Positions 22,134 to 32,348 of a DNA stretch of 64,000 nucleotides are shown in pieces. This DNA is from Candidatus Woesearchaeota archaeon (GTDB lineage: Archaea > Nanobdellota > Nanobdellia > SCGC-AAA011-G17 > JACPIM01), in the NCBI GenBank assembly GCA_016188045.1, contig JACPIM010000004.1, positions 8,493 to 72,492 of the forward strand, read 5' to 3'. The translations under genes were made by a program, and so were the position numbers. Position 1 is the first letter of the stretch; every line of letters starts with the position of its first letter. Below the pieces are notes generated by a model. It ran no database searches, was not told the origin of the DNA, and saw only the letters and a list, made by a program, of their open reading frames with translations.

Positions 22134-22496
22134 TTATATTTTCCCCCGTAGGTATAAAATAATTATGATTATAATAAAAAGTATAAGCAACAAAGTAATA
22201 GGATCTAATCTTCCTCCTCTTCCTCTAGGAAAAAAATGCTCAGCTGCTTCTTTCCATCCTTCCATTCTATCAATTCTAGACTTAAATGATTTCATCTTAT
22301 TTTCAACCTGTTTATTAAGTTCTTCTTCAAACAAATCTTCTATATAATATTTTATATAAAAACTTATCAATATTCCACTAATAATAAACCCACCAGTTCT
22401 GTAAATAGAAGGTAAAGCATCTTGATTTATGAAAGAAAAAATAGCTATCACTACACCCATAATACCTACCGCATCTGATAAGGTTTCCCTCTTCAT
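22134..22496 (-). CDS. membrane protein, last gene of the pilus locus
   Basis: Two or three TM segments; same strand and tight spacing with the upstream pilin genes. Confidence 0.4.
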   Translation of the reverse strand: MKRETLSDAVGIMGVVIAIFSFINQDALPSIYRTGGFIISGILISFYIKYYIEDLFEEELNKQVENKMKSFKSRIDRMEGWKEAAEHFFPRGRGGRLDPITLLLILFIIIIIILYLRGKI

Positions 22497-22581
22497 ACTT
22501 AATCACACCCAACTTTATTCACCCCTTACTTTTTATAATTGGTCTTGATATTTATATATTTTTTTATATTTTTAAAAATAG

Positions 22582-23067
22582 TTATTTCCCCCAAAAATAT
22601 AACCTAACGACCTTGGGCTCTTGATTTACATCTTTAGTATTAGCAATAAATATAGTATCAGTATAAACTGTTTTATCCTCAAGTTTCTCAGAAATCCTAG
22701 TGCAACTTAATGATTCACTGCAAACTTCACAAGCATAATCATAACCATTAATCCTAGTATTCATCAAATCATTAAAACCAGTACCTAAACCACATTTACT
22801 AAAAACATTTTTACATTCACAACTTTCAGGATTGCTTACTCCAACACCACAATTACTAACATCACTTTTCAAAATACAATCTCTTAAATTGCCATATTTA
22901 CCATCAAAAGACATCTGACTTAAGATAGAATCCATAGAATCCTTTACTTGCAAAGGAACATCTAATTCATCACCTACATCTCTATAATTAATATAAAGTA
23001 TAAACCCCAATAATAATACTATTGCAATTACAGCTTCAATTATTCTCAAAAATCCTTTTTTATTCAT
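22582..23067 (-). CDS. type IV pilin-like protein (class III signal peptide), Cys-rich
   Basis: MNKKG-FLRIIEAVIAIVLLLGF N-terminus; multiple Cys in the globular part. Confidence 0.65.
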   Translation of the reverse strand: MNKKGFLRIIEAVIAIVLLLGFILYINYRDVGDELDVPLQVKDSMDSILSQMSFDGKYGNLRDCILKSDVSNCGVGVSNPESCECKNVFSKCGLGTGFNDLMNTRINGYDYACEVCSESLSCTRISEKLEDKTVYTDTIFIANTKDVNQEPKVVRLYFWGK

Positions 23068-23934
23068 TCACCACACCCCAAAATAGATAACAATAGGGGT
23101 TACTTCCCCGTATTTATCAATTAAATTAGTTCTAAAAGTTTTTACATATACATTATCTCTTTCTTCTGGTTTTTTTGTTTCATAATTAAATTCTAAAATA
23201 CCTTTATCATCGGCCCTTATAAAAAAATCTTTATTTTCAGGAAAGTTCCATTTAGTTTTAATATTTGATTTTTTATATTCAGAATTTCTGCTTACTTTTC
23301 CTTCAGTTTCAGATAGAAAATTTTTAAAATTTAGATTATCAGTGTCTAATCCATATAAATTATCTATTGCCCCAATTCTATAATTGCAAGAATCAATTAT
23401 ACAATCGCTAGTTGAGCTATCTTCAATACTAAAATCAACAGGATTACTCTGGGCATAAGTAAGATAATAAACAAAAGCATTATTGGTACTAGCACTAGTT
23501 ATATGGCAATTATAGTTACTGCATCCCCCGCCAGATGGAGCTTCACTACTACTTACACAAGTTATTCCATTCCAATTAGGATCTTTAGTAATGCCAAGGT
23601 CTATTATATCCTTACTAACATCTTTAACTATCAATTGTGTTTGTGTCAAACTCCAACCCATACCAACACCCAGATTTATTATGGGCTCAACAGGTCTACG
23701 CTCAACACCTTCACCAACATCATAACTCTCACATATTCCAATAGCTAGAGGCACTTTTTTAACATTCAAAAAAAAGTCAGTTCTAAATTTTTCTTCTAGT
23801 AAGTTAAGCAAAAAACTTTCATTGCCTTCTTTTTGTATTCCTGGTTTTAATAATAAAAAGATAGTTATTAATGCAACTAAGAAAATGCCCATACTTACCA
23901 TCCAATCAACATGCTCACTTCCTTTTTTGTTCAT
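23068..23934 (-). CDS. type IV pilin-like / pseudopilin protein
   Basis: MNKKGSEHVDWMVSMGIFLVALITIFLLL N-terminus; adjacent to the other pilins. Confidence 0.55.
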   Translation of the reverse strand: MNKKGSEHVDWMVSMGIFLVALITIFLLLKPGIQKEGNESFLLNLLEEKFRTDFFLNVKKVPLAIGICESYDVGEGVERRPVEPIINLGVGMGWSLTQTQLIVKDVSKDIIDLGITKDPNWNGITCVSSSEAPSGGGCSNYNCHITSASTNNAFVYYLTYAQSNPVDFSIEDSSTSDCIIDSCNYRIGAIDNLYGLDTDNLNFKNFLSETEGKVSRNSEYKKSNIKTKWNFPENKDFFIRADDKGILEFNYETKKPEERDNVYVKTFRTNLIDKYGEVTPIVIYFGVW

Positions 23935-30618: not shown

Positions 30619-30627
30619 AATTTCACC

Positions 30628-31122
30628 TCACACCCTAATAGTTTTACTAGCTCCAGAGCAAGGAACTAAAGGAGCACCTCTCCCTTCTGGCCTTAATGCA
30701 GGAATAATTTCAACTTCAGTAGTCTGTTTACATAATCTCCCGCCAACACCGGTAGTATCATTTTCCGTACATTCTTGATCACTTTTTACTAATGAATATG
30801 AACCGCCAGGCTCTATATTATCATATAGCTCAGATTTTCTAACATTCCCACCAAATACCTCTCTTATTATCAGATTAATTTTTATATTTCCTTTATTAAT
30901 AATATTAATCACGCTTCCAGCAGTAACATCAATTTGAACTGCATCACACTCCAATTGTTTTCTGCTCAATTCAGCATTTTTTTCAACAGCTTGTTTCTGC
31001 ACCTCTCTTGTCCATAAAAAAACAACAGTTATAACTATTAAAACAAAAAAAAGCAACAAAAGTGTAGCAATTAAAGGAGTTATACCTCTTTTTTTCATTT
31101 TAGCATTCTTCAATTGATTCAA
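30628..31122 (-). CDS. type IV pilin (class III signal peptide)
   Basis: MNQLKNAKMKKRG then ITPLIATLLLLFFVLIVITVVFL. Confidence 0.75.
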   Translation of the reverse strand: MNQLKNAKMKKRGITPLIATLLLLFFVLIVITVVFLWTREVQKQAVEKNAELSRKQLECDAVQIDVTAGSVINIINKGNIKINLIIREVFGGNVRKSELYDNIEPGGSYSLVKSDQECTENDTTGVGGRLCKQTTEVEIIPALRPEGRGAPLVPCSGASKTIRV

Positions 31123-31594
31123 TTATCTTTTCACCTTCAGGACAAATTGTATTCATATCACCAAAAGCTATAAACGGCGTTAATATTATTTCTTTATTAC
31201 TATCACAATTGTTGAGATTATTTAAACTTTGCTCTTCTCCAGGTTTTAAAGGATTATCCAAATCTATTTTACCGCTAATATCACTTCCATCATCCTTAGT
31301 GCATATATATCTTATTCCATTAATGCTAAAACTACCCCTGTTTACAGCCTTGATTTCTAAATTATTATTCCTAATGCACCCAAAACCACCGAGATGAACT
31401 TCAGCACATCTAGTTTCAATTTCAGATTCTTTTACAGTAGTTTCAACAACTCTTTTAGACTCACCTTTGGACCACATACCAACAACAATTGCCAAAGTGA
31501 TACTTAATCCTATAATCAAGACATAGGATATTAATTCGGCAGCCCCCCTTTTATTCATTATCAACACACCCACCTTCCAACTTACAAAGATCAT
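31100..31594 (-). CDS. type IV pilin (class III signal peptide)
   Basis: MNKRGA then AELISYVLIIGLSITLAIVVG. Confidence 0.7.
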   Translation of the reverse strand: MIFVSWKVGVLIMNKRGAAELISYVLIIGLSITLAIVVGMWSKGESKRVVETTVKESEIETRCAEVHLGGFGCIRNNNLEIKAVNRGSFSINGIRYICTKDDGSDISGKIDLDNPLKPGEEQSLNNLNNCDSNKEIILTPFIAFGDMNTICPEGEKIIESIEEC

Positions 31595-32348
31595 TCATCA
31601 AGCAATTTTCTTCATCTCTTAAATTACAGTCACAAATAGTTTTTGGGCTTAATGAAGGATCTACACAATATTGTCTTAATCCATCAACCCAATTTTCACC
31701 TTTTTCAAATTTATGATTAGTATACACTTTTCTCTCCTCTCCTTTTTTTTCCTCGCTTAAAATAACTATCTGTGGAACACCCTTAATAATACCACTAGTA
31801 TATTTTATATTACTAACAACATAAGTAACATTATAAACATTATCATCTGTCGTTAAATCCAAAGTTTCAGAACACTTCTCTAAAATATCACCTAGTATAC
31901 CCATAAAATCTTCTGAAAGGTCACCAAAAGTAGTACCTAAGTGTATTTCGCCTTTACAACCATCTATCTTTTTTTTATTATTTTCATCAACCCAGACTAA
32001 TATAGGCTGATCTAAATGATTTCCAATAATTACTCTTCTGTTATCCCTATGACTGTAATCAAAAAAATAGATAAATCCAAAGGCAGAATTTATGGTTTTG
32101 GAATATGAAGTAAATTTCCCGCTAAACTCATTAAAATTTTTTTGAACATCTAATTCACTATTTTTTAATAATTCCTGACTTAAAGAAGTAAGAAATTTAG
32201 CACTTTCCTTATCATAATTGTTGCTTATTTCAATAAAAAAATCACTAAAAACAGTGCCCTTTGCGGTATTTAAATTAATGGAAAGAAGATATATAACTAA
32301 ACTAAAGATAAGTGCAGCTAAGATATAGATCTGACCTCTTTTATTCAT
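31551..32348 (-). CDS. type IV pilin-like protein (class III signal peptide), Cys-rich C-terminus
   Basis: MNKRGQ then IYILAALIFSLVIYLL. Confidence 0.65.
   Translation of the reverse strand: MNKRGQIYILAALIFSLVIYLLSINLNTAKGTVFSDFFIEISNNYDKESAKFLTSLSQELLKNSELDVQKNFNEFSGKFTSYSKTINSAFGFIYFFDYSHRDNRRVIIGNHLDQPILVWVDENNKKKIDGCKGEIHLGTTFGDLSEDFMGILGDILEKCSETLDLTTDDNVYNVTYVVSNIKYTSGIIKGVPQIVILSEEKKGEERKVYTNHKFEKGENWVDGLRQYCVDPSLSPKTICDCNLRDEENCLMNDLCKLEGGCVDNE

Follow-up and report, generated by a model that had tools for sequence, protein, structure and literature searches.

A predicted type IV pilus operon conserved among Woesearchaeota and Nanoarchaeota: ten-gene anatomy, seven prepilin-like proteins and an intein-bearing ATPase

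Two conserved type IV pilus loci have been described across cluster-2 DPANN archaea, including Woesearchaeota and Pacearchaeota (Hamm et al., 2024, PMC11291902). Previously, the ATPases of Nanoarchaea were placed in euryarchaeal clade 2, and two tadC-like genes were reported in clades 1 and 2 (Makarova et al., 2016, PMC4858521), and the presence of two one-domain platform genes was attributed to the fission of a two-domain gene, common to Epd-like and Tad systems (Denise et al., 2019, PMC6668835). In a groundwater preprint, type IV pilus components were described as "missing in DPANN genomes", and ultra-small cells on which pili were seen were taken for bacteria of the candidate phyla radiation (CPR) (10.1101/2020.05.14.094862). 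Here we describe a predicted type IV pilus operon in a 64-kb stretch of DNA (the window, i.e., the whole stretch analysed) with a GC content of ~30%, from a metagenome-assembled genome of Candidatus Woesearchaeota from groundwater. This locus and 80 related ones contradict the "missing in DPANN genomes" statement.

The operon occupies the minus strand from 22582 to 32348 and consists of ten collinear and closely spaced genes in the order A-B-C-D-E-ATPase-F1-F2-G-H, that is, five proteins with class III signals, a secretion ATPase, two platform proteins with one T2SSF domain each, and two more proteins with class III signals (Table 1). An earlier note, made from the sequence alone, had delimited a pilus locus at 22134–32348; the ten pilus genes are indeed on one strand, but the first gene of that span (22134–22496) is outside the conserved set, as it was only seen in the same-species contigs L001 and L002, and its product of 120 amino acids (aa) had no family matches in Pfam or NCBIfam. 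These two databases were used for the family annotation of the locus proteins, and PDB, AlphaFold2 (AF2) and Foldseek for structure comparisons. The exact NCBI matches for the locus proteins are on a 106-kb contig, where HYV88_02175, HYV88_02180 and HYV88_02185, the last of which is pilin D, are annotated as hypothetical, and the exact match of the ATPase (MBI2499024) carries the label "Flp pilus assembly complex ATPase component TadA".

An ATPase scan over one genome per GTDB species retrieved 262 relatives of the ATPase, and the best 80 loci, all from Woesearchaeota, Nanoarchaeota, Pacearchaeota or Nanoarchaeia, were used for counts, and their gene order was compared by tblastn with the window proteins. 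The ten-gene order was recovered on one strand in nearly all of these 80 species representatives, with per-gene counts across loci of 81 for F1, 78 for F2, 69 for G, 68 for E, 62 for D and 58 for H. Among close relatives, the ATPase and platform proteins are 77–95% identical and the pilin-like proteins 44–66%; the faster divergence of the latter fits a rapid evolution or exchange of surface-exposed parts. The closest long relative, from Hainich groundwater (L003), has an ATPase 77–79% identical to that of the window. Judged from its genes, the locus is best read as a type IV pilus operon and not as an archaellum, in agreement with the earlier note: the platform is split, the ATPase is closest to GspE of A. 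fulgidus, and the D family is pilin-like.

The ATPase open reading frame (ORF) matches T2SSE (8.2e-22) and each of the two platform proteins matches a single T2SSF domain, so that the ATPase and the two half-size T2SS-F proteins had been correctly recognized from the beginning. The length of the ATPase ORF, 1006 aa, is due to the insertion of a 444-aa intein, which fills 44% of it and had been overlooked. Once the intein is removed, the 562-aa extein contains the motifs GGTGTGKTS and SGHPSMGTMHA, has the Walker A and Walker B motifs as well as the His box, and is 58–86% identical to thousands of DPANN homologues. In comparisons with PDB, it aligns end to end with A. fulgidus GspE (2OAP) at 383 bits, and the scores are lower for FlaI (254 bits) and CpaF (163 bits). 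The platform proteins correspond to successive parts of the same two-domain protein, as F1 aligns to positions 5–249 of 555 of the ArlJ profile and 8–252 of 484 of UpsF, and F2 to positions 272–541 of 555 of ArlJ and 272–439 of 484 of UpsF. They are separate ORFs in all of the 74 loci compared (74/74).

The intein interrupts the extein at FQGMS^SGHP, immediately ahead of the His box. It begins with Ser1, ends with His-Asn, is followed by Ser at +1, and contains the Hint blocks; together with matches to Intein_splicing (2e-19) and two matches to LAGLIDADG_3 in Pfam, all the sequence features of a class 1 intein with a homing endonuclease are present. Of the 120 best homologue clusters, 9 have a homologous intein at exactly this position, 51–80% identical except for one mini-intein of lower identity, and PI-PkoII and the TFIIB intein are its relatives in PDB. 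This is a known kind of element, and its splicing is predicted. KlbA inteins, which sit in archaeal VirB11-like P-loop ATPases, are comparable as self-splicing elements that interrupt secretion-type ATPases at a conserved catalytic motif, with sporadic distribution and mini-intein derivatives, although they start with Ala1 instead of the Ser of the window intein. The pilus ATPase of another close relative (L091, 6170–10687) is 1505 aa long and contains two inteins.

In seven small proteins of the operon (A–E, G and H), a strongly hydrophobic helix is preceded by a short basic leader whose last residues are [KR]-G. These class III signals were identified with an ad hoc class-III-like pattern and through the conservation of the motif in orthologues. 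The [KR]G and hydrophobic helix N-termini are conserved in all seven families, with 24–65 orthologues each. The family signatures are KRG/Q[FI]Y for A (a slash in a protein motif marks the cleavage site), where K-G-Q is invariant; K[KR]G/ISPLIATVLLIGF for B, C and D, with K[KR]G/ISPLIATVLL as the conserved motif of C; KKG/DIWISAVLY for E; KKG/..H[VI]DW.IS for G; and KKG/[FY]I[RK]T[LI]EA for H, in which Glu at +6 is invariant. The six prepilins of the earlier note (A, B, C, D, G and H), with their M-N-K-[KR]-G leaders and hydrophobic helices, are thus recovered, their motifs being kept in dozens of genomes, and the prepilin-like proteins of the operon are seven when protein E, presumably the one taken as "FlaF/G-like", is added. 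In the rest of the window (~85 ORFs), the pattern flagged only one 142-aa membrane protein with three helices, which is no obvious pilin. Separately, a 534-aa protein at 16227–17831 (+), without family matches, starts with MKRG/IFIIFIILIL, which could be class-III-like or an ordinary signal peptide.

The families differ in their relationships with known pilins. Pilin D, the candidate major pilin, matches Pilin_N and TIGR02537 ("archaellin/type IV pilin N-terminal domain") at 35 bits, above the cutoff, and 28 of 55 members of its family match Pilin_N. The profile of these 55 sequences matches solved archaeal type IV pilins in PDB over nearly their full length, with 8fk7 as the best (9.6e-10), followed by 8rey, 9myg, 8fj5, 8gi2, Natrinema PilA2 and Iho670. 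At the level of sequence profiles, the major-pilin family therefore resembles solved archaeal adhesive pilins; this homology, as well as the gene content, the motifs and their conservation, is observed directly. Pilin C has a TIGR02537 N-terminal domain at 19.1 bits and weak matches to Pilin_N and UpsA. Regarding protein E, the FlaF/G label was most likely given to 28971–29549, a protein with its own MKKG/DIW leader; its 54-sequence profile did not retrieve FlaF or FlaG from PDB up to E = 10, and a fold search did not recover any similarity to the FlaF/FlaG beta-sandwich. We had to abandon this label, and E is best described as a conserved, probably minor-pilin-like protein whose head domain is unassigned. 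Weak Pfam matches were obtained to DUF7289 in 18 of 54 members of family E and to DUF7287 in 7 of 50 members of family G, both of which we take to be haloarchaeal families. Apart from this, no usable matches were found for G and H, and no relatives for A, in Pfam, NCBIfam or PDB.

Table 1. Features of the predicted pilus operon and of its immediate surroundings, in window coordinates.
Feature	Coordinates	Strand	Description
Pilin-like protein A	31551..32348	-	265 aa; leader MNKRG/QIY; orthologues at the same position in 40/80 loci
Pilin-like protein B	31100..31558 (ORF to 31594)	-	~152 aa from the MNKRG/AAEL start; 53% identical to the L003 orthologue
PilA-like pilin C	30628..31122	-	164 aa; leader ...KKRG/ITPLIATLLL; weak family matches
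PilA-like pilin D	30043..30618	-	191 aa; candidate major pilin; leader MISKQPFSKKNFDEKG/ITPLIATVLLIGF
In-frame insert in the pilin D leader	30577..30606	-	30 nucleotides; equals part of the tRNA-Leu D-loop intron save one base
Winged-helix protein	29625..29942	+	105 aa; long C-terminal helix; between pilin D and gene E
Pilin-like protein E	28971..29549	-	192 aa; leader MKKG/DIWIATVIY
Secretion ATPase precursor	25914..28934	-	1006 aa from GTG; NCBI start is ATG 28901 (995 aa)
Intein with LAGLIDADG endonuclease	26406..27737	-	444 aa; within the ATPase ORF
Platform protein F1	24869..25927	-	One T2SSF domain; N-terminal half of ArlJ/UpsF
Platform protein F2	23934..24797	-	One T2SSF domain; C-terminal half of ArlJ/UpsF
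Pilin-like protein G	23068..23934	-	288 aa; leader MNKKG/SEHVDW; in 69/80 loci
Pilin-like protein H	22582..23067	-	161 aa; leader MNKKG/FLRIIEA; invariant Glu +6; in 58/80 loci
Small membrane protein	22134..22496	-	120 aa; outside the conserved operon

From this anatomy, a mechanism can be proposed. According to its intact splice-junction residues, the ATPase precursor would first excise the intein by protein splicing. The spliced ATPase, expected to be a hexamer like its solved relatives, would then dock on the platform formed by F1 and F2, which would represent the N- and C-halves of the usual two-domain platform, as in Epd and Tad. An A24-type prepilin peptidase, presumably encoded outside the window, would cut the seven prepilin-like proteins after the conserved Gly, and the PilA-like D, C and B would polymerise through their N-terminal helices into a filament. 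The conserved but mutually unrelated A, E, G and H would most likely be minor pilins, in a priming/tip complex or at the base. Finally, the filament would serve for adhesion, be it to surfaces or to host cells, for DNA capture, or for both.

Several points weigh against this scheme. We infer splicing, processing, the assembly roles and the biological function from sequence, and sequence alone cannot choose between adhesion and DNA uptake. What is proposed for A, E, G and H is guesswork; these families have no significant Pfam or PDB relatives. A search for a prepilin peptidase (PibD/EppA/FlaK, A24) among all multi-pass membrane proteins encoded in the 64-kb window retrieved none, only MgtE and DUF1385, leaving unproven the claim of the earlier note that the locus is complete; the peptidase may be encoded elsewhere in the genome, since only the window was searched, and a peptidase in trans is a common arrangement. 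In addition, in three genomes whose ATPases are ~90% identical (L089, 10728–14751; L090, 7053–11133; L007, 3377–7457), G and H are replaced by an AAA_14/DUF4143 ATPase and a large protein of 879–897 aa, which starts with MKRG/RIEVLTIVIV, has a hydrophobic N-terminus and a weak match to Reprolysin_5, and may be a pilin-like adhesin or protease. In L091, A–D are replaced by HEPN/nucleotidyltransferase pairs. Therefore, not every component is indispensable in sister lineages. At the other end of the operon, a 156-aa cytoplasmic helical protein without family matches is encoded directly upstream of pilin A (32416–32886, minus strand); it is found at the same position in 15 of the 80 loci, is reduced to a 62-aa remnant in L089, and could belong to the operon as an accessory component.

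The alternative that survives best is a pilus serving mainly DNA uptake (competence), or else a short pseudopilus acting as a secretion or binding device, and not a host-attachment adhesin. We regard this as rather unlikely, although it is compatible with the operon anatomy and differs in the biological role only. In Methanococcus maripaludis, the Epd system, with its split platform epdJ/epdK and the ATPase epdL, is required for natural transformation (PMC10133366). As for a pseudopilus, the ATPase of the bindosome, BasE, is the second-best NCBIfam match of the extein (214 bits), and F1 has a weak match to BasF, but none of these BasE and BasF matches comes near its cutoff. There are also many minor-pilin-like proteins per major pilin, and a high minor-to-major pilin ratio is typical of pseudopilus systems (T2SS, competence). 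In contrast, the D family resembles the pilins of long adhesive filaments, and no gene for a DNA translocase or nuclease is linked to the operon, either in the window or in the relatives.

The second alternative regards the origin of the locus, which the earlier note had considered to occupy a position typical of acquired islands. A part of this description was accurate: two tRNA genes are located beyond A on one flank, and on the other the 3' end of the archease gene is duplicated as a 98-nucleotide (nt) direct repeat, 95% identical, at 21278–21375 and 22022–22119 (copy 2), with toxin-antitoxin genes adjoining. Nevertheless, this repeat brackets only a 744-bp insertion with a toxin-antitoxin-like pair, DUF433 and DUF5615/PIN-like (21392–21981), and none of the pilus genes, and in L003, where this pair is lacking, the operon is still found between the same archease/RtcB and GAPDH/PGK/PfkB neighbours as in the window. 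Similarly, archease or RtcB is within 10 kb of the operon in 22–23 of the 80 genomes. The composition of the locus is that of its surroundings, with a GC of 0.311 vs. 0.295 ± 0.033 in the rest of the window, a third-codon-position GC (GC3) of 0.204 vs. 0.206 ± 0.029, and a tetranucleotide distance inside the range of the window, and no integrase was found. Therefore, the recurrent order, the flanks of L003 and the ordinary composition, i.e., the results of the synteny and composition checks, indicate a core locus instead of an island: horizontal acquisition beside the tRNA genes is very improbable, and we are largely confident that the pilus operon is core and vertically inherited in the Woesearchaeota/Nanoarchaeota lineage. 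Insertion-like behaviour is confined to the 120-aa gene, the toxin-antitoxin pair and the winged-helix gene. A third, partial copy of the archease end (its last ~50 nt) is present at 40787–40884. In L003, the neighbouring RtcB is a 984-aa protein with an intein (14444–17398), and in the window RtcB lacks an intein and is represented by two adjoining or overlapping ORFs (19328–19621 and 19609–20880), possibly due to a frameshift or a mis-called start.

Finally, that the locus encodes an archaellum for motility with divergent archaellins is extremely improbable and we reject it: the TIGR02537 N-terminal domain is common to archaellins and pilins, homologous ATPases are labelled "FlaI" in some database sources, and the FlaI equivalog is the best NCBIfam match of the extein, but this match reaches 405 bits for a cutoff of 550 and the non-archaellar 2OAP scores well above the FlaI structures, the platform is split where ArlJ is a single two-domain protein, the D profile reaches archaellin at E = 0.8 only and through the N-terminal helix alone, and no Arch_flagellin (0/55 D-family members), FlaH, FlaF/G, FlaX or FlaCDE was matched among the locus proteins by Pfam or NCBIfam, as the earlier note had stated for archaellin, FlaH and FlaCDE.

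The type IV pilus operon of the window shows three recent lineage-specific changes, which are the ATPase intein, the insertion of the winged helix-turn-helix (wHTH) gene and a 30-nt fragment of a tRNA intron. The wHTH gene is located on the plus strand between the pilin block and the ATPase block, and diverges from the E-ATPase unit. Its product is probably 105 aa long, the same length as 389 homologues. In sequence comparisons with Pfam and NCBIfam, only a sub-threshold match to TetR_N was obtained, and the AF2 model (pLDDT 83.8) displays the arrangement H-H-H-H-beta-beta-long helix, for which Foldseek gives a probability of 1.00 to SarA, Sso10a-2, ZitR, SlyA and AF1382, together with similarities to MarR/ArsR-type regulators. 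The divergent position and the winged-helix fold proposed by the earlier note are thus supported, but a dedicated pilus regulator is not, as just 1 of the 80 genomes has a homologue within 10 kb of its pilus ATPase. Indeed, the 389 homologues are 70–95% identical, far above the conservation of the pilins, and are found in unrelated housekeeping contexts, one of them beside RNA polymerase and ribosomal protein genes, and in L003 and L089 genes D and E are only 15–19 nt apart with no gene between them. These unrelated contexts and the adjacency of D and E suggest that the gene of a lineage-wide DNA-binding protein was relocated into the operon here. This lineage-specific insertion would split the operon into two transcription units, A–D and E–H. 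Comparing the region upstream of the gene (window 29550–29624) with those upstream of position 6001 in L086–L088, we found a conserved TATA box, GTTTATATACTTT, ~20 nt before the ATG in the four genomes, and just upstream of it the motif ACATACTTTGAA in three of the four, which is possibly an operator. A second TATA-like box in this 75-bp divergent region faces gene E.

The third change involves the tRNA genes flanking the operon. The first, at 32949–33034 (minus strand), was called tRNA-Phe(AAA) by ARAGORN with intron search, but tRNA-Thr(GGU) is more plausible because of a canonical 37/38 intron and U73. The second is a tRNA-Leu(UAA) at 33076–33217 (minus strand), which was missed by default ARAGORN and by Rfam because a 44-nt insert in its D-loop accompanies a 12-nt canonical intron, and was recovered only after the in silico removal of the D-loop intron. 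Following the definition in PMC4090602, this D-loop intron lies in a well-formed bulge-helix-bulge with the central helix GGUC/GACU, the bulges AAA and UCA, and the inner helix CAAC/GUUG, in which cuts after the second nucleotide of each bulge exactly yield the mature tRNA-Leu. The tRNA-Leu orthologue of L003 does not have the D-loop intron.

The insert in the pilin D leader is identical to this tRNA-Leu intron at 29 of its 30 nt and adds QPFSKKNFDE in frame. The gene starts with ATG ATA TCA AAA [30 nt] AAG GGT in the window and with ATG TTA TTA AAA AGA GGT in L089, and aligning it with both L089 and L003 shows that the leader was originally MLLKRG or MFNKRG; it now reads MISKQPFSKKNFDEKG, with the K-G/I-T cleavage context intact. 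We considered an mRNA intron recognized by the tRNA splicing endonuclease, and rejected it because no bulge-helix-bulge brackets the insert in the mRNA. The 13 nt from which the H and h' helices of the pre-tRNA are built are missing in the pilin D copy, and without this 3' part of the motif the copy is presumably translated and then lost together with the leader. An assembly artefact was also rejected, since the exact pilin D protein is found on 7 contigs of the NCBI and Logan assemblies. No copy was retrieved when contigs of JGI metagenomes were scanned with the 27-nt core of this element, and a weak 22-nt match in L059 is inside a coding region and looks like chance. Tentatively, the leader insert could be an off-target footprint of the DNA-level mobility of tRNA introns, the same sequence having been newly gained, at a distance of 2.6 kb, by tRNA-Leu(UAA). 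In that case, tRNA introns of archaea could enter protein genes and survive in frame within signal peptides that are cleaved off, and this would be a rare case, caught in the act, of the unexplained mechanism of tRNA-intron transposition.

Taken together, an operon for pilus assembly that is full except for the peptidase belongs to the conserved core of these archaea, which bears on their attachment to surfaces or hosts or on their DNA uptake. As the general point has already been published (Makarova et al., 2016; Hamm et al., 2024), the gain is mainly descriptive, and consists of the precise ten-gene anatomy, the seven conserved pilin-like families, four of them without known relatives, and the swapping of distal pilin modules between close relatives.

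Among the known systems, the one closest by description, on which alone the equation with the window locus is based, is "Locus 1" (CpaF, TadC, FlaF, PilA) of Hamm et al. (2024). It is found in the same lineages (Woesearchaeota, Pacearchaeota and Nanoarchaeota), has the same core of CpaF-like ATPase, TadC-like platform and PilA-like pilins, and has been given the same suggested role in cell-cell interaction. That study focused on Nanohaloarchaeota and associated coiled-coil proteins, and its FlaF label is not substantiated here for the equivalent protein E; the details added by the window locus are a pilin set of seven families, the ATPase intein and the inserted wHTH gene. The euryarchaeal clade 2, which includes PilB3/PilC3 of Haloferax (PMC4858521), is also alike in gene content and description, since two tadC-like genes are frequent and the major pilins are of the Pilin_N (PilA) type and accompanied by several minor pilins; the weak matches of E and G to DUF7289 and DUF7287 are a further likeness. 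In contrast, the window encodes all its pilins in cis in a ten-gene operon, and no Pfam family is significantly matched by A, E, G or H. The Epd system of Methanococcus maripaludis and Tad (type IVc) share with the window the two adjoining one-domain T2SSF genes by the ATPase, and the substrates of EppA have Gln at +1, as in family A. However, the pilins of Epd and Tad are short and Flp- or Epd-like, whereas those of the window are of the PilA type and ~130–288 aa long. Tad also has a second, TadZ/FlaH-like ATPase, none of which was found in the window locus with Pfam or NCBIfam, and from the PDB scores CpaF is a more distant relative of the extein than A. fulgidus GspE or FlaI. Overall, the locus is an ordinary, conserved and well-formed example of the known DPANN type IV pilus operons.

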